A DNA stretch of 64,000 nt, taken from contig CAZALK010000012.1 in the NCBI GenBank assembly GCA_964486045.1, forward strand, positions 1-64,000, given 5' to 3'. A program made the position numbers and the translations under genes. Below, piece after piece: positions 22,917 through 34,883 of this stretch; position 1 is the stretch's first letter; every line of letters begins with the position of its first letter. The DNA is from an uncultured archaeon. GTDB lineage: Archaea; Asgardarchaeota; Lokiarchaeia; Sigyniarchaeales; SOKP01. A model generated the notes under the pieces. It worked only from the letters and a program-made list of their open reading frames with translations, ran no database searches and had not been told where the DNA came from.

Positions 22917-24614
22917 CTAATCTCCAAACTGCCCTGAGTCTATAAAATTACGAATTTGGGCTAATAATCCTTGAAATCCTTTTAGACTTAGAATTCTGTC
23001 GGAAGCAAAAATTCCTTCGGTCTGGATATGGTAGGGTATAAAGTGTTTTATACCTTGTAAGAAAAGTTCATTAAAATAACTATTTTTACTGTTTGTTTTG
23101 ATTAACATCCCTTTCCAATTAAGAGATTTAATGTTTTTATTATAGTTTTCAATCCATAATAGGAAGTTATCTTGAGTTCCCCTGTAGGTAGCAGTTCCCT
23201 TACATTCAAAAAGAAAGATGTATTCATTAGCTTTAATCGCCAAGTCAACTTCCTCATAGGAAGATTTGGATCCATCAGGAAAATTAGCATTAACCTCTAA
23301 AGGAGGATTCGGAAAATCTTTAATTTGTTCCTTCATCTCGAAATATTTTTCGGATGGATCCAATTTTGGGTTACGAAATATAAGTTTTTCAACAGGGAGT
23401 CTAAACTCCACAGCTTTATTAAAACACCAATTTTCTAACATTTTCCCCTTTTTATCTTGGAATTCTTCTGTTTTTTGGATGCTTTCTAAATATTTTATCA
23501 ATCCTCTCCAAATAACTAATAACCCAGTATAAACTACGCCCGAAATGTTGTACATGCAGTATGATAAAAATTTATTGTATTCCCAAAGAAAGTATCGTGG
23601 TTTGAAATAGTAAAAATCATCTGGGAACTTGATTTTTTTAGAGTTTAGACAAAATTTCTCAAAAAAAACAGTATACTTGTTTTTGGACACTTTTTCCTTT
23701 AATCTATTGATAATATTACCCTTACGAAGCTTTACGTACAGCTTTCCCTCAACAAGCTTTAATAATTCCCCGAAGCATGTTAGATTCAAGATTATTTTAT
23801 CTTTTTGAGAGGGGATTCTATTTGTATAGTATTTCATAAATACACTTATAATCTCATCTATCTGAACTTTAGAACCGAGTATAGAGATACCTGCATAATT
23901 GAAAAATTCACGTGTAAACTTTGAAATACCTAAACTTGAATCAATTTTAAATATTCTTTTAAAACGGTTAGTTTTTTGATATTTTTCAAATAAATGTCTC
24001 TCGGGGGGAAATTTCAGCCCTTTTGGTGGTTTAGAATCTAAAAAATCTGTAATGATGCTTGTATCGTAAATCTGTTTTAAGGCTTCACAGTCTAACACTG
24101 ATCTATAAGCAGGATCAAATTCTAAATCTGGAAGAAGGCTGTTTATTCTACTGTATGGTTTTACTTTATTTAATATTTCAATAAGTTCAAGATCATAATT
24201 ATCAGGGTCAATTGTATTAAAGATAAAAAATCGATTAATTAAAGGTCCCCATGAAGTTAATTCATCAATTTTTTGATCGGTTTCTTCAAGATTAAGCATA
24301 ATATTTAGGTTGTACTTCATAGACAAAAGAAGAATAATTCCAAATGCTCTTTCAGAGCCAATTAAGAATTCATCCATTGATCCAGGGTTATCCAAATTAG
24401 GTTGCATCTCTGGAATCTCCCTAAATAAAGTTTTAAGCGAGTCAAAATAATTAATATGTATGTAATAGTTTAAAAAGTAGGTACATACTTCAACTGCTCT
24501 TATTTTATGTAGATTTAAAACCCCCTTTATTAGCTCATAAAACTTGGGATTGTTTTCATCAAGTAGATTTTGAATTAATTGACCTTTTAAGTCATTTAAA
24601 GGATCTTCAGCCAT
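22917..24614 (-). CDS. Large protein with a C-terminal PD-(D/E)xK (NERD-like) nuclease domain
   Basis: KGKMLE...EEVDLAIKANEYIFLFECKG. Confidence 0.65.
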   Translation of the reverse strand: MAEDPLNDLKGQLIQNLLDENNPKFYELIKGVLNLHKIRAVEVCTYFLNYYIHINYFDSLKTLFREIPEMQPNLDNPGSMDEFLIGSERAFGIILLLSMKYNLNIMLNLEETDQKIDELTSWGPLINRFFIFNTIDPDNYDLELIEILNKVKPYSRINSLLPDLEFDPAYRSVLDCEALKQIYDTSIITDFLDSKPPKGLKFPPERHLFEKYQKTNRFKRIFKIDSSLGISKFTREFFNYAGISILGSKVQIDEIISVFMKYYTNRIPSQKDKIILNLTCFGELLKLVEGKLYVKLRKGNIINRLKEKVSKNKYTVFFEKFCLNSKKIKFPDDFYYFKPRYFLWEYNKFLSYCMYNISGVVYTGLLVIWRGLIKYLESIQKTEEFQDKKGKMLENWCFNKAVEFRLPVEKLIFRNPKLDPSEKYFEMKEQIKDFPNPPLEVNANFPDGSKSSYEEVDLAIKANEYIFLFECKGTATYRGTQDNFLLWIENYNKNIKSLNWKGMLIKTNSKNSYFNELFLQGIKHFIPYHIQTEGIFASDRILSLKGFQGLLAQIRNFIDSGQFGD

Positions 24615-24644
24615 GATAATGTTATTTATTTTCTGTATTTTAAA

Positions 24645-24676
24645 AATCAGATGGTGATTTGGGTTTTTTAATTCAT
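24645..24676. repeat. 32-bp direct repeat, copy 1
   Basis: aatcagatggtgatttgggttttttaattcat; 31/32 identical to 25503-25534. Confidence 0.95.
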
Positions 24677-25498
24677 TATTTTTTTTTTTTTAAATAGAAG
24701 ATCTTTCATTTGTTGTTCTCTTATTGGAATGTGTAGATCTTTCATATGATAAGGTAGAAACAATTGGTTACAAATATCTGCATATGCTATCGCTTTAGCT
24801 TCTTTTTTCTTTAGCCCCGCACCTTTTCCATAGTAGTTTTCTTTTGGAAAAAATTTAAGAGATTTTACCCAAACTTCACAATTAAATGGTGATGTAATCT
24901 TTTCGGGCGCTTTATAGATTATTTCAATGAAATCCTTATCTTCTAATTCTTTAAGGGTGTTTATAGGATTATTTGGTATTAACCCTAGCTCCTTATAAAT
25001 TTCTTGGAACTTATTCCTTAATCTAATCTCATCAGGATTTTCTAGGTCATTAAACAATTCATAATAAGGTCGTTCCTTTTCACTTATTTCTATATCCCAA
25101 TAGCTCGATCCATGAGAAACTAAATCCCATCCTTCTTTATATACAGCCATACCAATTATTGATTTTATATTTCTTTGAATCTCTTCGAATAATTTCATAT
25201 ATTTTATAGTTTGTTGCCTTACTTCTTGTGGGTTCTTGTTTTTGCACTCAACAATTAAAAACTTGTTATTTCCATCGGTAAAAATTAAATCTCCTTTGCC
25301 TTTATTGGATAAACCAGATTCAACCTCCCATTCATAATCATAAATAAATTTGAATTTCCTCAGTTCAGGCTTTTTCTTTGTTAGATCTTGGACAACTTTT
25401 CTAACTAGAAGAAATTCAGGATTTTTATCCCAAGTTCTTGATAAAATATAAGACCGGATTGCCTTATCTCTTCGCTTTATTTCCTTATCAACTTTCAT
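24668..25498 (-). CDS. PD-(D/E)xK nuclease fused to a double-stranded-RNA-binding domain (dsRBD)
   Basis: N-terminal E56..GKGD70LIF..E84CK..Q96xxxY100. C-terminal aa about 177-247 NPINTLKEL...FNCEVWV...GKGAGLKKKEAKAIAY matches the dsRBD alpha-beta-beta-beta-alpha pattern with KKxAK. Confidence 0.7.
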   Translation of the reverse strand: MKVDKEIKRRDKAIRSYILSRTWDKNPEFLLVRKVVQDLTKKKPELRKFKFIYDYEWEVESGLSNKGKGDLIFTDGNNKFLIVECKNKNPQEVRQQTIKYMKLFEEIQRNIKSIIGMAVYKEGWDLVSHGSSYWDIEISEKERPYYELFNDLENPDEIRLRNKFQEIYKELGLIPNNPINTLKELEDKDFIEIIYKAPEKITSPFNCEVWVKSLKFFPKENYYGKGAGLKKKEAKAIAYADICNQLFLPYHMKDLHIPIREQQMKDLLFKKKKIMN

Positions 25499-25502
25499 TA
25501 AG

Positions 25503-25534
25503 AATCAGATGGTGGTTTGGGTTTTTTAATTCAT
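25503..25534. repeat. 32-bp direct repeat, copy 2
   Basis: aatcagatggtggtttgggttttttaattcat. Confidence 0.95.
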
Positions 25535-25561: not shown

Positions 25562-26305
25562 TTATATTCTTAGATCGAGCAATCTGCCATTTATTCGAAG
25601 CCATTCTTTCCATTTTTTATAGTTTGGGAAAAGAGATTCGATTAAATCCCAGAATTTAGAAGAATGTGGGGGTTCTTTCAGATGACATAATTCATGAACA
25701 ATAATGTAATCGATTGCGGAAATTGGAGCCATGATAATTCTCCAATTAAAAATTAGTCTTCCATCTTTAGTACAAGACCCCCATCGAATTTTTTGGTCTC
25801 GCACTTTAATTTCTTGAGGTCTATAATCTATTACATTCAAATATTTCTCAATTCTATTAGAAATAATACTAAGAGCTTTTTCTTTATACCATTCAATTAA
25901 AACTCTTTTTATCTCATCTTCTTTTAGGGCTTCTGATAAATTTTCATTAACATAAATATGAAGTGTTTTAAAGGCATAAGTTATTTTAGAACGCTTGTTT
26001 GGGTAATTATAGATTTTTAGCCTAATTAATCTATTTTTTAATAGAAGTTTTTCTCCACTAACTAATTCATGCTTAACAGGGATTGGTTTTTTAATCTCTT
26101 CGGTAAGTTTTAATTTTTCTACAATCCATTTTCTTTTTTTGTAGATTATATCTTGGATTTTTTCGCGCTCTATATTTAAGGGGGCTTTAACTATTACTTT
26201 TCCATCAGGTTCTACCACTATTCCAATAGTCTTACGTTCTGTACGATCTATTGAATAACTGATCTCTTTCTCTCCAAACTTTACCGATTGTATTTCAGAA
26301 ACCAT
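25562..26305 (-). CDS. M48/YgjP (DUF45) zinc metallopeptidase associated with type I R-M
   Basis: RWGSC and DYIIVHELCH motifs; likely start MVSEIQ at 26305 (ORF track start 26374 overlaps hsdR). Confidence 0.9.
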   Translation of the reverse strand: MVSEIQSVKFGEKEISYSIDRTERKTIGIVVEPDGKVIVKAPLNIEREKIQDIIYKKRKWIVEKLKLTEEIKKPIPVKHELVSGEKLLLKNRLIRLKIYNYPNKRSKITYAFKTLHIYVNENLSEALKEDEIKRVLIEWYKEKALSIISNRIEKYLNVIDYRPQEIKVRDQKIRWGSCTKDGRLIFNWRIIMAPISAIDYIIVHELCHLKEPPHSSKFWDLIESLFPNYKKWKEWLRINGRLLDLRI

Positions 26306-26345
26306 CTTAAAACTATTCTCTTCAAATATTTTATTTTTTGATTTT

Positions 26346-29300
26346 TTATCTTGATGGGAAATGCACTTTGGCAAGATCTTCTATTTGATGTGCTAATAGA
26401 TTTTTTCGATTCTCATCAATATTTTTCTTGCGGAAAACTTCTTTACTGGCTTTTCTTATTTTTCGTAAATTATCAGATTTATGTTCCCAATCGATTAATA
26501 TTATAAATTCTTCAATCGCTTCTAGTACCTCATACGTAAATTTTACAATTTCTCGCTCATCTTCAATTCCCGCTTCATTTGCATCTACTTGTAATAGATT
26601 GAAAAATGCCAATTCAGCACTATTAAGCCCCATTTTTTGGGCTAGGTTTGGTCTTTCTTTAATTTCATTATAAAGGGCTTTTAACCTCTTGATTTTCTCA
26701 GCGAGATCGATCCTATTTTGGGTATACATCTCTATTATTTCTTCTAACCGTTCTTTTAAACTCCTATAAAAAACAGGATCCTCCTCTATTTTAACACTTA
26801 TCTCGTGTTGAACAGCATGTTGCATTTCACTCGCTTTTGATTTATCTGATTTTAGGCTATCTAAAGCTTCTTGGAACTTTTCTGAAAGAATAGGCACGGG
26901 CTCAACTAAAATTTTAATATTGGTAGATCTTATATGTTCATCTATAATTTTTTGAACTTTCGCACCACAACCTGCAAGATCTAATATTTCTTCACGATAT
27001 CGATTTTTTGCAGCTCTTAAAATCATACCAAATCGTTTTAAATCCATTAAATAAGGCTGAGCACGGGGATCTGGCAAAACTACATCCATACTCTGTGCAA
27101 ATTTTTTGAAATCGTTATGAAAATCTGCTCTAACGCTTTCAGATTCCAATACTAAAATACAAGCCTCTAAATCATTAATGTCCATACCATCAAAATAAGA
27201 TAATACCGCTTTATGATATTGTTCTAAGGGATATAACTCACTTTCAATAGATTTCATAAAACCTTCGATGTCAGGCTTATCAAAAATTTCTAAAGCTCTT
27301 TCTAAATGATTAGAAACACCATAATAATCAACAATTAGACCGTAATTTTTGTTTTCATGTATTCTATTAACCCTGGCAATAGCTTGTAATAAATTGTGTT
27401 CTTTTAACTTTTTATCAAGGTACATTACCTGCTCGATTGGTGCATCAAAGCCCGTGATAAGCATATCACACACTATTAGAAATTTAAGAGAATCATTATC
27501 ATCTTTAAAACGATCAATCACTTCTTGTCGTTTTAATTTATCTGTTATGAAATCCGCTCCAAGTTGTCTTAATTCATCATCATAACGAGGATTTGCCGAA
27601 ATGATAACTACAGATTCAGGAGCATTCAAATCATCTAAATATTTTTTATACATAACAGCTACTTTTCGAGATGAAGTTACGTTTTGGGCTTTAAAACCAT
27701 TTGGTTCGATATGATCTTCATAGTGCTTTATAATATCTAACACCACTTTTTTAATCCTTTCTGGAGCGGCTAGAATTGCATCCTCAGTAGCATATTTTGC
27801 CTTTATCTTCTCTCGAATTTCTGGTTCTTTATCAGAAAACACACGATTAAAAATCTCATCTATAGATTCTCCTTCTACCCTTAATTCTGGTAACCTATTT
27901 TCATAAAGAATCTTTACTGTAGATCCATCTTCAACCGATTGGCGTAAATCATAAGAATCAATAAGCTGGCCAAATTTACTAACAGTCTTACCTCTACCTA
28001 CTGAAATTGTTTCATTTTTCTCATTTCTCGCTAATGGGGTCCCTGTATATGCGAGATAACAAGCATTTGGTATTCCCATTCGCATATTCATACCGAAGAC
28101 CTTGTACTGTGAACGATGAGCTTCATCAACAAGAACAAATATATTTTGATCATCATTGAGTTTAGGAAATTCTGCTCCCTTCCTTGATATACCTGTTTGC
28201 GAATCCGCGCCTTTAGTACGAAATTTTTGAATGGTAGTAAATATGGTGACCCCTTGTCCTATTTGTACAAGCTCTTGCAGGTGATCAACACTTCTCGCTT
28301 CGACAGGATTAGAAAATCCACATCTTTCGAATGTACTATTTAACTGATTCACTAAATCAATTCTATCACACACAAATACTAATAATGGATTACTTAGCTT
28401 CGTTTCTCTTCTCAATTTTATTGATGTGAATAGCATAGTAAGAGATTTACCCGAACCTTGTGTATGCCAAATTGTGCCACCTCGTAGGTGATAATCTTTT
28501 TCCTCTAGGATACGAGTCAATGTCTTATTTGTTGCCCTGAATTGTTGATAACGAGCAATCTTTTTAAGCAACTTTCCTCTTGAAGTTTCAAAAATAATAA
28601 AATTACGAATTAAATCTAAAATATTTCTTTTTTCTAATAATCCATAAAGTAAAACATCTTGTGGTGTCGGTTCTGGAGTTGAACGCCCCGCTCTTTTAAT
28701 AATATTTTCAAGTTGGTCTTTAGTAATAGGATATGGTTCCTTCCAAATTTGAAAGCTTTCATAGGAATTACCTAAAACCCCATAAACAGCTGATTGACTA
28801 CTGGTTACTATTATAATCTGATTAAGATGAAAAAGTTTAGGTATAGTTTCTTGGTATTCTAAAACCTGTCGAATACCTTGCTGTAAAGGATTCGTCAGTA
28901 GGGGACTTTTGCATTCAATAACTACTAATGGTAAGCCATTAATAAAAACAACAATATCAGGGATTCGATTCCCCTTGGAAGCATTAACTTTATATTGATT
29001 TACAGCTAAAAACTCGTTATTTTCGATATTATCCCAATCTATAAGCTTAACCCAATGATTCCGCCGACCTTTCCCATCATGAAGATCTTGTTCTACTGCT
29101 AAATTACTTGGTTTTGTTAAATATTCCCACACTTGCTCATTAAAATCAATTTGACTGGAAGTTGTGGGAATTGTTAACTTTCGGAAAACCATTTTAATGC
29201 TAGTTTCATTAACCCAAGGATTAAATTCTTTAATCTTTTTTGTTAGCGTTGCTGTGAGGATTACTTCTCTAAGGCTGGAACGCTCTGTAGTATTATATTG

Positions 29301-29405
29301 AGGACTGACTTCTTTTCTTTCTTTAAATTTATAACCAAGCTCTTGTAATAATTTCAAGGCTGGCTTTTCTGTCTGATTATATTCACTCCAATCAAAAAGA
29401 CTCAT
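26346..29405 (-). CDS. hsdR: Type I restriction endonuclease subunit R
   Basis: PDIVVFINGLPLVVIECK nuclease motif; WHTQGSGKS Walker A; DEAHR; TGTP; TGFDAP; QAIARVNR. Confidence 0.97.
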   Translation of the reverse strand: MSLFDWSEYNQTEKPALKLLQELGYKFKERKEVSPQYNTTERSSLREVILTATLTKKIKEFNPWVNETSIKMVFRKLTIPTTSSQIDFNEQVWEYLTKPSNLAVEQDLHDGKGRRNHWVKLIDWDNIENNEFLAVNQYKVNASKGNRIPDIVVFINGLPLVVIECKSPLLTNPLQQGIRQVLEYQETIPKLFHLNQIIIVTSSQSAVYGVLGNSYESFQIWKEPYPITKDQLENIIKRAGRSTPEPTPQDVLLYGLLEKRNILDLIRNFIIFETSRGKLLKKIARYQQFRATNKTLTRILEEKDYHLRGGTIWHTQGSGKSLTMLFTSIKLRRETKLSNPLLVFVCDRIDLVNQLNSTFERCGFSNPVEARSVDHLQELVQIGQGVTIFTTIQKFRTKGADSQTGISRKGAEFPKLNDDQNIFVLVDEAHRSQYKVFGMNMRMGIPNACYLAYTGTPLARNEKNETISVGRGKTVSKFGQLIDSYDLRQSVEDGSTVKILYENRLPELRVEGESIDEIFNRVFSDKEPEIREKIKAKYATEDAILAAPERIKKVVLDIIKHYEDHIEPNGFKAQNVTSSRKVAVMYKKYLDDLNAPESVVIISANPRYDDELRQLGADFITDKLKRQEVIDRFKDDNDSLKFLIVCDMLITGFDAPIEQVMYLDKKLKEHNLLQAIARVNRIHENKNYGLIVDYYGVSNHLERALEIFDKPDIEGFMKSIESELYPLEQYHKAVLSYFDGMDINDLEACILVLESESVRADFHNDFKKFAQSMDVVLPDPRAQPYLMDLKRFGMILRAAKNRYREEILDLAGCGAKVQKIIDEHIRSTNIKILVEPVPILSEKFQEALDSLKSDKSKASEMQHAVQHEISVKIEEDPVFYRSLKERLEEIIEMYTQNRIDLAEKIKRLKALYNEIKERPNLAQKMGLNSAELAFFNLLQVDANEAGIEDEREIVKFTYEVLEAIEEFIILIDWEHKSDNLRKIRKASKEVFRKKNIDENRKNLLAHQIEDLAKVHFPSR

Positions 29406-29413
29406 TTTCTCGC

Positions 29414-30634
29414 TTAATCGTATTTAATATTTACTCTCTTTTTTCCAGTTAATAAGCCTTGCATTAATCCTTTCTTTATCGTTTTTAATCTATTTTGATA
29501 TTCTTCTTCAATTTCAATATTATTATCAATAGATAATAATATGTTTGATATCGACTTCTGTTCCTCTATTGTTGGTGGGACAGGAATTCTAAATAATTTG
29601 AATAAAGATTTTTTTACAATTGGAACAGCAGCAACTCCTGCATATGTTTTTAAATATTTTGATCTATTTGAAATGGCATAACAAATATAATGGGGATCAT
29701 TAGTCTCATCACAAATCAATGAGTTAATTTGTTGATTCATAATTGAATCCTTTACTGCTAAAGCAACTTTTCCTATAGTTGATCCTATGCAAACAGTACA
29801 TATACCATTTTCTGGTATTAACTTTGATTGATTTGCTCCAAGAAACGATACGAATCTTTCGGTTTTTCTTATATAATGTTTATTTGTTATATCTCCTGGT
29901 GTAATAAAAGGAATATCATCTCCCCAGTAGTCATCAACTAATGTTGATGGTGTTTTTCCAGTAAAAATTCTTCCTATTTTTTTTAGTTGTAGAACATTCC
30001 AACTTTTTGGAATTTTCCCCACTCTCGTCTCTTTAAATTCGGTATGTTCGATCCCCTTCGTAAACAGGCGTTGCATCAGCCCTTTTTTTAAAATTTGTAA
30101 ATATTTAATGAGATCTTGTGTTTTAAAAATTAATTCATCAACATTATATATCATGGAGCTAATTTGTTTTTGTTCTTTAAGATTTCCTGGTAATAATACA
30201 GGAAAATTAATCAATTCTTCTTTAGTAATCGCTTCAAAAGTAGATCCTTGTTTGAGACGGCTAAAGACTTTATTAAAGTGGTTTAACAAATAATAAATGT
30301 ATTTCGTATCATATCCATTTTTAACTCTCACTGCAGAAAGCCCGCGTCCTATGCAAGATTCCACATCAGCAATGTTTATAGCTCCTACAGGTGCTCTAAC
30401 ACTAACTAAGATATCATTTGGGTCAGCAATTTTTTTAGGGGAATTACACCATGTTTTTACATCAGGATGATAATAACCAAAATCTGCATTACCCTGAAAA
30501 AAAGGTAAACCCTCAGAATCGGTATTATAAGTAGATGATGGGGGAGATTGCCCCATGATTATAAGAGAGATTTCTTTTAATTTTTTAATTTCCCATAAAT
30601 CTGGAACATTAATATTTAACAATCTATTGGTCAT
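29414..30634 (-). CDS. hsdS: Type I R-M specificity subunit S
   Basis: Two TRDs with conserved P...EQ..I and KKGLMQ.L.T repeats. Confidence 0.95.
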   Translation of the reverse strand: MTNRLLNINVPDLWEIKKLKEISLIIMGQSPPSSTYNTDSEGLPFFQGNADFGYYHPDVKTWCNSPKKIADPNDILVSVRAPVGAINIADVESCIGRGLSAVRVKNGYDTKYIYYLLNHFNKVFSRLKQGSTFEAITKEELINFPVLLPGNLKEQKQISSMIYNVDELIFKTQDLIKYLQILKKGLMQRLFTKGIEHTEFKETRVGKIPKSWNVLQLKKIGRIFTGKTPSTLVDDYWGDDIPFITPGDITNKHYIRKTERFVSFLGANQSKLIPENGICTVCIGSTIGKVALAVKDSIMNQQINSLICDETNDPHYICYAISNRSKYLKTYAGVAAVPIVKKSLFKLFRIPVPPTIEEQKSISNILLSIDNNIEIEEEYQNRLKTIKKGLMQGLLTGKKRVNIKYD

Positions 30635-32135
30635 ATCCTAATTCTCTCATATTTTTTTCAAACTCCTTCTCTAATTCCATCCGTTCAGTTTGTAGTTTTC
30701 TCAATTCCACAATACATTCAGCAACATTTACAGGTTCCTCCTCAGGCAAAATATCAATATATCGAGATACATTCAAATTAAAATCGTTTTCTTGGATTTC
30801 TTCAAGATTGATTAAAGCTGAAAATTTTTCTATTTCTTCCTTTTTTCGATAGGTATTGGAAATCTTTTGGATATGTGCAGCTCTTAGAAAATTTTGTGCT
30901 TTTCCCTCTTCAAACTCATTTTCAGCGTGGATAAAGAAAACTTTATTTTTCAATGCTTCTGATTTTTGCCTATTTATTATGATTAAACACCCTGGAGCAC
31001 CCGTATTATAAAATAGGTTAGAGGGTAATGCTACAACACCTTCAATGAAATCTGCTTCAACAATAGCTTTTCTTACTTTTCCTTCACTCTGCCCACGAAA
31101 TAACGCACCATTATCCAATACTACTCCCATTCTGCCGTTATGATTCAACGTCGCCAACATATGTTGTATCCACATCCAATCACCAGAACTTTTTGGTGGT
31201 ATGCCATACTTAACTCTTCCATAAGGATCGCCCCTCTCAAATAGTTCACGACTCCACTCTTTCTGGTTCCACATAGGGTTTGCGATAACGATATCAAACA
31301 ACATTAAAAGATTATCTTCTTTTAATTTCGGATCCGCCATTGTATCCCCATGTTCAAGTCTGTGATCAAGAACATTATGAAGCAAGAAATTCATTTTCGC
31401 AATAGCCCATGTATTCAGATTTTTTTCTTGCCCAAAAATAGAAATGTTATTAGGATTTTTTCCTTGCTCTTTCAAATATTTTACACTTTCTATGAGCATT
31501 CCACCACTACCACAGGCAGGATCGCAAATTCTCATACCTTCTTGAGGATCTAAAAGCCTAACTAAGAGTTTTACAACCCCCTGAGGAGTGTAAAATTCAC
31601 CACCTTTTTTACCCGAATCATCGGCAAACTGCTTAATTAAGTATTCATAAGCTCTTCCCAACATGTCTGGTTCGCTTAAATTTGAATTTGCCAGATTAAA
31701 CTCTGGTTGACTAAAATGAGTAATAAGTTTATTTAAAGCTGCATCAGGTAAGCGCTTTGTGTCTTCAAATTGAATGGGTGTTAAAACGCCTTCCAAGAGA
31801 GGATTACCTTCTTCTAATGCTTCAAAAGCTTTATCTATAGCATTTCCGATTCCTTCTGATATCCTGCGAATGCTTCTCCAACGTGCCCGTTCTGGCACAA
31901 AAAATTGATAATTATCAGGATCCTCTCGGTCTCCTGTCACTTGTCGACGCTCCTCATCAAACTGATCAGATAATCTTTTCAAGAATAACAGACCAAATAT
32001 ATAGTGTTTGTATTCTGAGGAGTCTATGCTACCGCGTAAAATATCGGCTGCGGTCCATAAAAATGATTCTAACTTATCGAGGGCTAATTTCGGCATTTTT
32101 CGACCCGACCATTTGTCTAATTCTTTTTGAGGCAT
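30624..32135 (-). CDS. hsdM: Type I R-M methyltransferase subunit M
   Basis: LWTAADILRG, GEFYTP, DPACGSGG, catalytic motif IV NPMW; probable start 32096. Confidence 0.97.
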   Translation of the reverse strand: MPQKELDKWSGRKMPKLALDKLESFLWTAADILRGSIDSSEYKHYIFGLLFLKRLSDQFDEERRQVTGDREDPDNYQFFVPERARWRSIRRISEGIGNAIDKAFEALEEGNPLLEGVLTPIQFEDTKRLPDAALNKLITHFSQPEFNLANSNLSEPDMLGRAYEYLIKQFADDSGKKGGEFYTPQGVVKLLVRLLDPQEGMRICDPACGSGGMLIESVKYLKEQGKNPNNISIFGQEKNLNTWAIAKMNFLLHNVLDHRLEHGDTMADPKLKEDNLLMLFDIVIANPMWNQKEWSRELFERGDPYGRVKYGIPPKSSGDWMWIQHMLATLNHNGRMGVVLDNGALFRGQSEGKVRKAIVEADFIEGVVALPSNLFYNTGAPGCLIIINRQKSEALKNKVFFIHAENEFEEGKAQNFLRAAHIQKISNTYRKKEEIEKFSALINLEEIQENDFNLNVSRYIDILPEEEPVNVAECIVELRKLQTERMELEKEFEKNMRELGYDQ

Positions 32136-32489: not shown

Positions 32490-34883
32490 ATGGAATATGT
32501 AAACTATAATGGTAAAAAATATCTAGTTAACAACTTTAAGTTAGATTTAAGTGGAGAAGGCATCAAGGATATAGCTCAAATTAAGAATTTAAAAAATCTT
32601 ACAACTGTTAAATCATTAGATCTTTGGAACAATTCTATTTCAAATATCAGCGGGTTTGGAGAAATACCACAATTACAAGAATTAAATTTACGAGATAACA
32701 ATATAGTTGAAGTCTGCGGTTTAGATAACCTTGAGAATCTTGAGGTACTAAATATTGCAAATAATAAGATTAAAAACCTTTCAGGTTTAAAAACCTTAAA
32801 AAAATTGAAAAACCTAGAAATACACGGCAATCAAATTGAAGATATAAATGGCTTAAACAAATTAACTAATCTTGAAAAATTAGGACTAAGTAGTAATAAA
32901 ATAAGTAAGATATCAGGATTAGATTCATTAGAAAAATTAAAAGATTTATATTTAAACAATAATCAGATTGAAAAAATAGAAAATATTAATCATTTATCAT
33001 CTCTTTCTTACATAGATCTTAGCTCAAATCCAATTGACGAAATCGCTGGTTTTGAAAACCTAACAAACTTAAAAAACATCAAGTTAAATAACACGTTAAT
33101 TAAAGAGGAATTGTTCACAAAGTTAGGAGGTCTTAAAGCTGATTTATCCAGCAGCTATACAGTTAAGGAGCCACAGAACCTTGTGAAATATTGTCGAGGG
33201 GATTATGTTGAGTATCAAGATAAGTATTTTTTCTTGAATGGCAAAACGCTTGAATTGAACAAACTAAGAATTAAAGATATCAGTGATATTAAACGGTTAA
33301 AGGAATTAGATTTTTTGGAACATTTAAAATTAGCTAACAATCAAATAAAAGAAATTAAAAATCTAAACGCTCTTGTCAATTTGAAAAGTCTAGCCCTTAG
33401 TAGTAATCAAATAGAGAAAATTAAAAATCTTGATTCCTTAAGTAACTTAGAAATACTCGCACTTAATGATAATCAAATACTGGAAATCAATGGACTCGAT
33501 AAATTAGAAAAACTCCAAAAACTAAATATGAGTAATAATAATATCACTAAAATTAAGGGTCTTAAAAATCTACAACATCTAAAACAATTAATATTATCTG
33601 GAAATAGCATTAATTCAATTGAAGACCTACAAATGCTTAAAAATTTGGAGTATTTGCATATAGCAAGTAATAATATCAATAAATTTCAAGGACTAGATAT
33701 ACAAATAAATTTAAAATGGTTATATTTAGAAAATAATAATTTAACTTCCGTAAAGGGGATTGAAAAGTTAAGTCGTTTAGAGATTTTGAATTTAAATAAT
33801 AATTCAATTAATGACATTGAATACATTACTGAGTGTATAACTTTAAAAAAATTATATCTGGGGAATAATAAAATAGCCAAATTTGAGGATTTAGGAAATT
33901 TGGTTAATTTAATCTTTCTTAACATCGAAAACAATAAGATTGATGCCAATTTATATGAAATTTTAAAATTAACAGACAACAGCCCTCGATTGTTTGTGAG
34001 TTATTGCCTTCTAAGGCAATTAATAGAAAATATGGAAAAGAAAATTATATGGTCTGATTCTATAAGGAAATATCCTTACTTAAAAGGTATAAATTATGAT
34101 GAACTTAGAAAAATTTCGTCTAGATTTAGATATGTGGAAATTCTAATAAATAATAATTATGAGATTCAGGCTATTGTGACTCCTGAATGTTTAGTAGTCG
34201 AACTTGATACAATATTAGAACCTTTCCCTGAAAATGAAGATTTAAGTTATACTTTTTTAAGAGAAAAATTAAAATTAATAACTGATAAGGCTGCTAAAGA
34301 ATTTAGTCTATATATAAAAGAAAAAAGATTATCAAAGTATCCCATATATGAAACTGAAAAAGGAATAAGAAAATTAGGAAAAGAACAATTAACACATCAA
34401 CTAGTTATTTATGATGCACCAAATCAAAGATTTTTTCTCAACAGAAGTCAATTTGAGTTTAGACTAAAGCAGATTGACAAATTTCTTACATTTAATAAGA
34501 AACAATCTTCCCAAATTTATAAATATGCATTTATCACTGATGAGATAATTAAAAATAATAGTGCAGCAATTAACTTTTTAGAACAAAAATTAAATTGGCA
34601 TTTGATCTATGTCTCTAAAGATGAAAAAACCACAGATATCGATGCTAAGATTACAACTTTTGTTAACGATCTAAATAACCTTTATTCAAGAAGATGGGAT
34701 ACAATTCATCTAATAACAGCTGACCACCAATTAATAAATTTCTTTTTAAATACTTTTAAAACCACTCCTTTAACGAATCTCTTCTTTATTACTAATCCTG
34801 ATGAAGATCTCCTTACATCTATAGGTGAACTGAAAAAATATGATAATGACAACCTAAATTTAAATATTTATCATAGAGCTTGA
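32490..34883 (+). CDS. Leucine-rich-repeat protein (SDS22-like, two LRR blocks) with a C-terminal NYN/PIN-like domain
   Basis: About 20 LxxLxLxxNxIxxIxGL repeats; C-terminal LVIYDAPN...KTTDIDAKI...DTIHLITADHQL resembles NYN/LabA motifs. Confidence 0.7.
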   Translation: MEYVNYNGKKYLVNNFKLDLSGEGIKDIAQIKNLKNLTTVKSLDLWNNSISNISGFGEIPQLQELNLRDNNIVEVCGLDNLENLEVLNIANNKIKNLSGLKTLKKLKNLEIHGNQIEDINGLNKLTNLEKLGLSSNKISKISGLDSLEKLKDLYLNNNQIEKIENINHLSSLSYIDLSSNPIDEIAGFENLTNLKNIKLNNTLIKEELFTKLGGLKADLSSSYTVKEPQNLVKYCRGDYVEYQDKYFFLNGKTLELNKLRIKDISDIKRLKELDFLEHLKLANNQIKEIKNLNALVNLKSLALSSNQIEKIKNLDSLSNLEILALNDNQILEINGLDKLEKLQKLNMSNNNITKIKGLKNLQHLKQLILSGNSINSIEDLQMLKNLEYLHIASNNINKFQGLDIQINLKWLYLENNNLTSVKGIEKLSRLEILNLNNNSINDIEYITECITLKKLYLGNNKIAKFEDLGNLVNLIFLNIENNKIDANLYEILKLTDNSPRLFVSYCLLRQLIENMEKKIIWSDSIRKYPYLKGINYDELRKISSRFRYVEILINNNYEIQAIVTPECLVVELDTILEPFPENEDLSYTFLREKLKLITDKAAKEFSLYIKEKRLSKYPIYETEKGIRKLGKEQLTHQLVIYDAPNQRFFLNRSQFEFRLKQIDKFLTFNKKQSSQIYKYAFITDEIIKNNSAAINFLEQKLNWHLIYVSKDEKTTDIDAKITTFVNDLNNLYSRRWDTIHLITADHQLINFFLNTFKTTPLTNLFFITNPDEDLLTSIGELKKYDNDNLNLNIYHRA

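Follow-up and report, generated by a model that had tools for sequence, protein, structure and literature searches.

The 64,000-nucleotide stretch of DNA analysed here (the window: positions 1 to 64,000 of contig CAZALK010000012.1, from an uncultured archaeon of the Lokiarchaeia) carries a gene whose product joins an N-terminal PD-(D/E)xK nuclease to a C-terminal double-stranded RNA (dsRNA)-binding domain (dsRBD). Each of the two domains is well known, and the architecture that they form together is new. No PD-(D/E)xK-dsRBD protein is described in the open-access full-text literature that we searched or in PADLOC, NCBIfam or Pfam, and there was no dsRBD-bearing PD-(D/E)xK chain among the PDB structure matches, which we report merely as an absence. 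Our results point to a dimeric nuclease that is aimed at, or switched on by, A-form duplexes and is probably conflict-related, a reading to which, taken as a whole, we give a probability of about 0.5. The gene and its parts are as follows.

24668..25498 (minus strand): nuclease-dsRBD fusion gene, 276 codons plus stop; from the open reading frame (ORF) list, the translation, 24 homologues and alignment A1
25079..25498 (minus strand): N-terminal helix and PD-(D/E)xK core, residues 1-140; from the AlphaFold2 (AF2) domain model, fold matches, alignment A5 and the dimer prediction
25199..25417 (minus strand): catalytic and motif residues E28 (25415-25417), D70 (25289-25291) and E84 (25247-25249), codons checked
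within 25199..25417 (minus strand): further motif residues K86 (25241-25243), Q96 (25211-25213) and Y100 (25199-25201)
24743..25042 (minus strand): RNase III-derived module, residues 153-252, comprising linker helix, dsRBD and tail; from alignment, profile matches and tree
24758..24973 (minus strand): dsRBD core, residues 176-247, alpha-beta-beta-beta-alpha; from AF2, VIA-align with Foldseek, and Pfam dsrm
24794..24808 (minus strand): KKxAK phosphate-binding motif, K231-K232-E-A-K235, at the start of helix 2; from conservation in A1

Searching 5.8 billion proteins through a word index gave 24 relatives of the fusion protein at 41-92% identity, almost all of them 250-300 amino acids (aa) long; a single one of them has a named record. 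All fusion relatives with a named record and full length came from metagenome-assembled genomes (MAGs) of the Promethearchaeota, and a scan of GTDB genomes again confined full-length relatives to Promethearchaeota MAGs. We aligned 19 full-length fusion proteins (alignment A1, to which all counts out of 19 refer). In the N-terminal half E28, D54, E58, K68, D70, E84, K86 and Q96 were invariant and Y100 was kept in 18 of 19; in the C-terminal half P178, L185, K231, K235, C243 and Y250 were invariant. More than 20 intact full-length proteins, spanning the same 41-92% identity, retain every catalytic and RNA-contact residue. Because homologues this divergent have kept the motifs, the alignment indicates that ORF 24668..25498 is a real gene with both domains under purifying selection. 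An initial annotation of the window, made from the letters alone, had placed the gene in an Asgard archaeon and had read from it a complete PD-(D/E)xK and QxxxY active site and C-terminal dsRBD hallmarks. The homologues bear out all three statements: every named full-length one is from a Promethearchaeota MAG, E28, D70, E84, K86 and Q96 (19 of 19) and Y100 (18 of 19) lie where the motifs require them, and the dsRBD hallmarks are present, conserved in A1 and correctly numbered.

The N-terminal domain was modelled alone with 38 relatives in AF2. The model reached a predicted local distance difference test score (pLDDT) of 90 and had an alpha-beta-beta-beta-alpha-beta PD-(D/E)xK core, in which a helix at residues 5-20 is followed by the core helix 27-42, strands 51-58, 68-74 and 79-85, helix 90-107 and strands 113-120 and 123-127. 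Its structural matches included NucS (Z 7.4), an HsdR nuclease (7.2) and the Cas4-family protein ACE1 (7.1), and also CidB, BpuSI, Dna2, Cas4 and Hjc; nearly all of the top 50 were PD-(D/E)xK proteins and none stood out. The motif order D..ExK..QxxxY is that of RecB/HsdR-type nucleases. Judged by its fold and motifs, the segment of residues 1-140 is a PD-(D/E)xK nuclease of the metal-dependent type, with the RecB/HsdR kind of motif set. The domain also aligned weakly with the N-terminus of the window's own HsdR (27% identity over 79 aa, pairwise E 0.007). There is no Pfam model for this nuclease family, whose sub-threshold matches were scattered over members of the PD-(D/E)xK clan, and the domain profile had no match among PDB sequences. 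A feature search of the ESM Atlas gave low scores alone (0.79). Foldseek matches of the domain to bunyaviral cap-snatching endonucleases were weak (TM-score ~0.36, root mean square deviation (rmsd) ~10 A) and were not used.

An exhaustive hidden Markov model (HMM) search showed that the N-terminal domain belongs to a family of stand-alone proteins of 150-170 aa and some other fusions, and that the stand-alone proteins occur in Asgard archaea, cyanobacteria and proteobacteria. In an alignment of 38 sequences of this wider family (A5), E28, G69, D70, E84 and K86 were invariant, and Q96 and Y100 were at least 90% conserved. Stand-alone members carry a basic loop of ~20 residues (SG.TARTRRTKKR) right after ExK. 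In A5 this loop is deleted in the fusion family, and because it was lost there we infer that the dsRBD took over from it as the nucleic-acid grip. The remaining motifs of the stand-alone proteins, all ahead of the loop, read RD.VLR.Y..R.WD..EF, GKGDLVFTDG and VVEVK. In addition, a 671-aa EukProt protein (P0039, from a Stygiella incarcerata transcriptome) has three tandem stretches resembling the domain (E 4e-23) and no Pfam family; this jakobid-assigned transcript may represent a true eukaryotic member or be a prokaryotic contaminant.

The C-terminal half has the fold of a dsRBD. Modelled in AF2 with the family alignment, it formed helix 178-187, strands 191-196, 205-213 and 221-228 and helix 231-245, with pLDDT values of 82-93 over this block, and the full-length model was one compact two-domain body (predicted template modelling score 0.74). 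The alpha-beta-beta-beta-alpha order at residues 178-245 agrees with the dsRBD fold that the initial annotation had expected at residues 177-247. When the model was compared exhaustively with 48,161 PDB chains by VIA-align, with Foldseek run alongside, the best structure match of this part was Staufen dsRBD5 (Z 8.0, rmsd 2.2 A over 68 of 70 residues), followed by Loquacious, TRBP, DCL3, the RNase III enzymes of E. coli and Aquifex and dozens of further dsRBDs. The HMMER comparison with Pfam dsrm (PF00035) that the annotation had proposed gave a sub-threshold match for the window's protein (residues 190-246, E 0.002, 19.1 bits against a cut-off of 23 bits), but dsrm was matched by 11 of the 19 family members (best 5.3e-5), a joint profile matched solved dsRBDs at E 1.8e-16, and the AF2 and Foldseek results support the same assignment. 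The hallmarks N177-P178...L182.E184-L185 and F205.x.E208 are in place. Within KKxAK, which is RNA-contact region 3, K231 and K235 were found in all 19 proteins, K232 was lysine or arginine in 16 and A234 was kept in 15, and the helix-1 glutamate E184, in RNA-contact region 1, was present in 17. Together, these data indicate that residues 178-245 are a genuine dsRBD, in which two of the three canonical RNA-contact regions are conserved and which probably binds A-form duplexes in an altered manner.

Homology of the C-terminal half to RNase III extends beyond the dsRBD. In an exhaustive HMM search of 1.8 billion cluster representatives, residues ~154-250 matched proteins of 257-278 aa at E 1e-7 to ~6e-13; eight of these were verified with Pfam as RNase III plus dsrm, and one is annotated as 'ribonuclease III family protein [archaeon]'. 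The similarity to archaeal RNase III C-termini (25-34% identity) takes in a linker helix, Y.ELGL.P.NP, and a tail, C-x2-(I/L)(F/Y)LPY. Both motifs are present in RNase III of the window's class (families f1, genome G186, f3 and f6) and absent from that of other Asgard families (f13 and f16). In a maximum-likelihood tree of the segment, 11 fusion proteins formed one clade (100/99) that grouped with a subset of Loki-type RNase III dsRBDs (80/86), with the f13 and f16 enzymes apart (98/90). The nesting in the tree and the shared linker and tail argue for a single origin of the fusion within the Loki class, in which the C-terminal module of an RNase III was captured and joined on near residue 150. 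The fusion protein itself matched neither Pfam RNase III domain (PF00636 or PF14622), for which RNase III relatives score E 1e-15 to 1e-21. By this measure it is not an RNase III, and the C-terminal module alone derives from one.

The initial annotation had called dsRBDs rare in archaea, which fails for Asgard archaea: we found RNase III in 107 of 400 Asgard genomes, with a full dsRBD in many copies, and an Asgard rnc gene with a dsRBD is known to flank HrAgo1 (PMC11217426; cited also in PMC12624956). The genome's own RNase III was considered as donor of the dsRBD and was ruled out, its C-terminus being degenerate and having no detectable similarity to the fusion dsRBD. This resident enzyme (247 aa; locus L001, 1357-2100, on contig 6) has a degenerate C-terminal dsRBD and no Pfam dsrm match. 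In most genomes of the window's family RNase III matches a Loki-type query over the catalytic domain alone, and a few genomes (among them G186 and G196) also have a long form with a full dsRBD.

The protein is predicted to form a homodimer through its N-terminal helix. The prediction had an interaction score (ipSAE, interaction prediction score from aligned errors) of 0.53 compared with 0.01 for the best control, with a partner pLDDT of at least 75 and agreement between runs in at least 0% of contacts. Among solved proteins, 20 of 30 that are pairs of one chain reached the 0.53 mark, as against 1 of 23 single chains. The predicted interface consists of residues 6-26 and 54-58, including the conserved R10, Y17, W23 and D54, and its helix, RD.(T/V)(I/L)R.Y...WD..EF, is conserved across the family.

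Stand-alone relatives of the nuclease were found in defence-type surroundings. In a genome of the same order (G140, family f3; L066, G140:C157, 1857-8249), a 6.5-kb stretch has five genes on the same strand: a Loki-type rnc, which encodes RNase III plus dsrm, a pVip viperin (PADLOC E 7.2e-78), a stand-alone nuclease, a bpMoxR AAA+ ATPase and a vWA protein. The nuclease gene (165 aa, L066:4147-4644) overlaps the viperin stop by 8 nucleotides (nt) at its start, and counterparts of both 'parents' of the fusion are 1.5 kb apart in this defence-type cluster, possibly a viperin-linked nuclease module. Elsewhere, stand-alone relatives of archaeal type adjoin a CBASS-type SMODS nucleotidyltransferase gene with Prok-JAB and Ymh, are close to MazE and a RAMP-like gene, or are close to RNase HII and an Mrr-type restriction gene (Mrr_cat). 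The bacterial members sit in unremarkable or insertion sequence (IS)-rich contexts; among the loci seen (L051, L052, L053 and L055), one was beside an IS66 transposase and one beside aconitase B and DUF29. These neighbours raise, without establishing, a conflict-related role, as guilt by association at a handful of loci, and a role as immune effector is plausible.

The distribution of the fusion gene is sporadic. At E 1e-10 the family profile matched 10 of 400 Asgard genomes. Four of these matches lay in other families and turned out to be RNase III genes or a stand-alone nuclease. The fusion gene, as a copy or a remnant, was seen in the genome of the window and, of the 134 further genomes in its family, in 5; a single one of 53 other congeners carried the gene, as a fragment. 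Furthermore, the copies decay: in one genome (G240) the start ATG has become CTG, in another (G164) a premature stop at codon 23 takes the place of the invariant W23, a third copy (G249) has a frameshift at the domain boundary near residue 173, and two more (G177 and G146) are fragments. This is a sporadic accessory gene that is quick to decay, as is typical of defence, toxin or selfish genes, and the pattern speaks against any housekeeping role. No viral relatives were found in IMG/VR contigs or GenBank phages, and homologue searches found no eukaryotic counterpart of the architecture.

In the mechanism that we favour, a homodimer held by the conserved N-terminal helix would use its two dsRBDs to clamp an A-form duplex (dsRNA, possibly an RNA:DNA hybrid) beside two restriction-type active sites. 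The architecture would thus be that of a class-1 RNase III with another cutting domain, and cleavage would be directed to, or conditional on, dsRNA. As to which strand is cut, the dsRBD would argue for RNA-containing duplexes and the RecB/HsdR-type motifs for DNA; an RNA:DNA hybrid substrate or a DNase gated by dsRNA would reconcile both. Conflict with viruses or mobile elements would be the likeliest setting. A more specific version, in which the protein is an Asgard single-gene antiviral effector made by moving an RNase III dsRBD onto a restriction-type nuclease, and whose dimer recognises viral dsRNA or hybrids and then cuts, is tentative and on the doubtful side.

Several observations count against this mechanism. 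In canonical dsRBDs the beta1-beta2 loop GPxH reads the second minor groove. In the fusion family four residues of this loop (region 2) are deleted and its histidine is lost (..SPF, compared with RGPDH.P.F in the donor clade), and this deletion may have weakened or altered RNA binding. The three best structure matches of the domain are protein-binding, type-B dsRBDs (Staufen dsRBD5, Loquacious dsRBD3 and TRBP dsRBD3), although these lie within 1 Z unit of RNA-binding dsRBDs. RecB/HsdR-type PD-(D/E)xK enzymes are DNases and the domain has a weak likeness to HsdR, so that cutting of dsRNA would not be the default expectation. Moreover, one of the three dimer runs differed, neither PADLOC nor NCBIfam had a match for the fusion protein, and ordinary metabolic genes surround the fusion gene at two of its six loci.

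The same observations can be read in other ways. The loss of the GPxH loop and the protein-binding Staufen, Loquacious and TRBP dsRBDs at the top of the structure matches would fit a DNA-acting nuclease whose dsRBD does not bind RNA and serves instead as a type-B protein-interaction, dimerisation or structural module, in repair or recombination or in a selfish nuclease. Its fold neighbours NucS, Hjc and HsdR are DNA enzymes, and a cassette with direct repeats and scattered, decaying copies would suit the selfish variant. However, the KKxAK lysines and the helix-1 glutamate, usually lost in type-B dsRBDs, are nearly invariant here and no conserved protein partner is encoded nearby; for a selfish element, the other homologue loci lack flanking repeats and no viral or phage copies were found. 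We regard this explanation as unlikely. It is rather unlikely, too, that the protein is a dsRNA-switched DNase of the abortive-infection type, in which the dsRBD would be a sensor and viral dsRNA would free or assemble the nuclease to degrade virus or host DNA. The D..ExK..QxxxY motif set of the nuclease is one that DNases typically have, the domain shows a weak alignment with the HsdR nuclease next door, the gene is part of an accessory region beside type I restriction-modification (R-M) genes, its patchy and often inactivated copies would fit a costly effector, and relatives of the nuclease adjoin viperin and CBASS-type genes. Yet the sequence gives no sign of autoinhibition or of a switch, the AF2 body is compact with no occluding element identified, and there is neither a PADLOC match nor a conserved partner.

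Two further explanations were weighed. Every species-representative copy other than the window's is damaged (G240, G249, G164, G177 and G146), as expected of a recent, functionless or decaying chimera hitch-hiking in variable regions; but the window's copy is intact, and the catalytic and RNA-contact residues kept by more than 20 intact proteins require long purifying selection, which makes this very improbable. Housekeeping RNA processing, in which the protein would stand in for or complement the resident RNase III with its degenerate dsRBD, could draw on the fact that this 247-aa enzyme has no dsrm match or similarity to the fusion dsRBD and that RNase III in most family genomes matches over the catalytic domain alone. 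Its distribution brings this idea close to refuted: the gene is absent from 129 of 134 family genomes and from 52 of 53 congeners, most copies are broken, the neighbourhood is variable and the gene looks like an insertion. We consider it scarcely credible.

The fusion protein can be compared with several known systems. Class-1 RNase III of the Loki class (P0086, P0105 and P0118; the rnc beside HrAgo1, PMC11217426) has the homologous linker, the dsRBD and a C..IYLPY tail, and also places one C-terminal dsRBD on a small nuclease domain, the homodimer being a prediction in the present case. The fusion differs from it in its PD-(D/E)xK catalytic fold, in the GPxH deletion, in its predicted dimerisation through an N-terminal helix and in being a sporadic gene. 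HSDR_N domains (PDB 3h1t and 2w00) share the fold (Z 7.2-7.7) and the motif order D...E-x-K...Q-x-x-x-Y; unlike HsdR, the nuclease domain of the fusion is small, has no translocase motor attached and no significant Pfam match, carries its own predicted N-terminal dimerisation helix and is fused to an RNA-binding domain. The C-terminal nuclease of NucS/EndoMS (PDB 2vld; Z 7.4, rmsd 3.1 A over 92 residues), the top structure match for the N-domain on its own, belongs to an archaeal dimeric PD-(D/E)xK enzyme, and NucS_C was matched weakly by 8 of 19 family members. However, the fusion lacks the N-terminal DNA-binding domain and the PCNA-binding tail of NucS, sequence matches are far below threshold, and the Z value lies in the noise band of PD-(D/E)xK proteins. 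The stand-alone family (P0106, P0099 and the G140 ORF) shares 30-46% identity over the N-domain, the helix RD.(V/I)LR.Y...WD..EF and the invariant E28, G69, D70, E84 and K86, but its members have the basic loop of ~20 residues, have no dsRBD and occur also in bacteria.

Eukaryotic antiviral and RNA-silencing proteins commonly reuse the dsRBD, something that is seldom met in prokaryotes. As in HEPN-dsRBD and RNB-dsrm proteins, PKR and ADAR, the dsRBD of the fusion would bring a catalytic domain to dsRNA or switch it on, and the catalytic domain differs. Bacterial RNB-dsrm protein clusters exist, and fusions of dsRBDs to HEPN (CXorf38) and to HEPN-RNase III have been described (PMC3710099). In this family an Asgard lineage has put the dsRBD to new use as a portable module, on an enzyme other than RNase III, and the case can be dated. 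If the protein cuts or senses dsRNA, an RNA-duplex-directed nuclease would join the Asgard defence repertoire and the substrate range of the restriction fold would be wider. If it is an antiviral effector, it would be the first PD-(D/E)xK enzyme to be guided by a dsRBD and, in the closest relatives of eukaryotes, a prokaryotic analogue of the wiring of dsRBDs to PKR, ADAR and Dicer partners. The initial annotation went further and suggested relevance to the origin of eukaryotic dsRNA surveillance. On this the gene has little direct bearing, because its dsRBD is a local Loki-class copy and the architecture is narrow, found in few Lokiarchaeial genomes and with no eukaryotic or viral counterpart found. 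For eukaryogenesis it carries limited weight: this is a small, young family, restricted to some Lokiarchaeial genomes, and we found no orthologue of it in eukaryotes. The family illustrates a capacity and is not an ancestor of the eukaryotic proteins.

The locus contains the following further features.

25498..25534 (minus strand): upstream copy of a 37-nt direct repeat, ending on the A of the start codon; the copies are 35/37 identical
24640..24676 (minus strand): downstream copy of the 37-nt direct repeat, opening on the final ATG AAT TAA of the gene (two codons and the stop)
25562..26374 (minus strand): YgjP-like (M48/WLM-type) metallopeptidase, the upstream neighbour and last gene of the type I R-M unit; Pfam PF01863, E 4.2e-58
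26346..32135 (minus strand): type I R-M genes hsdR (26346-29405), hsdS (29414-30634) and hsdM (30624-32135); Pfam HSDR_N, SWI2_SNF2, Methylase_S, N6_Mtase and HsdM_N
22917..24614 (minus strand): 565-aa accessory protein, the downstream neighbour; without a family in Pfam or NCBIfam, and matched weakly by PADLOC CARF_PDDEXK (E 0.0012) in its C-terminal part

The two repeat copies are spaced 858 nt apart and flank the fusion gene. They are the only copies of the 37-nt repeat in the 5.18-Mb genome, where none is expected by chance. The repeat carries TTAAAAAA ~27 nt before the ATG, a position that would suit the archaeal TATA box of a leaderless transcript. Repeats and spacers gave no Rfam match at E <=0.1, and their RNA structure was not above that of shuffled controls. 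A near-identical metagenome contig (L036), whose fusion protein is 92% identical, is arranged in the same way with repeats that have diverged further, and the event therefore predates the split between the window and this contig. At the other homologue loci we found no flanking direct repeats scoring at least 12 within 200 nt, and an empty insertion site was not found among 135 family genomes. The arrangement is most simply read as the insertion of one gene with duplication of its target or junction, leaving an 858-bp cassette between the R-M/YgjP unit and the 565-aa accessory gene.

The initial annotation had taken the position of the gene downstream of an hsdMSR-M48 cluster as a sign of an immune effector. 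The position is correct: the fusion gene lies 63 bp downstream of the YgjP-like gene, which follows hsdR, hsdS and hsdM on the same strand. The linkage did not hold. Five independent homologue loci (L002, L004, L006, L007 and L021) had no R-M neighbour (0 of 5) and no neighbour in common with the window or with each other, and in a congener (G182) the gene right after hsdR-YgjP is a convergent one and the cassette is missing. The R-M arrangement is shared only with the near-identical contig, and R-M linkage is not a property of the family.

Candidate partners fared no better. ORFs of 364 and 373 aa upstream of two homologues were considered as conserved partners and rejected, as they show no relationship to one another or to the SNase-OB gene (370 aa) of the window. 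The 565-aa gene was likewise rejected as an obligate partner: it is linked to the fusion gene only in the near-identical contig and, as scrambled remnants, in one further genome (G177), and its other homologues are without a nuclease-dsRBD gene. At the contig end in the latter genome (L042/L045, G177:C36 ~190523-191166), adjacent scrambled fragments of the fusion gene and the 565-aa gene look like a decayed remnant of the same two-gene arrangement. The 565-aa protein has a C-terminal D...ECK motif and belongs to a small Asgard family (7 relatives, one of them from a named Thorarchaeota); one contig with a homologue has a DrmE_C-like gene nearby, and another has GIY-YIG and HATPase genes. Just past hsdM, on the opposite strand, positions 32490-34883 (plus strand) encode a 797-aa protein with ~20 leucine-rich repeats (Pfam LRR_4, E 5e-65).

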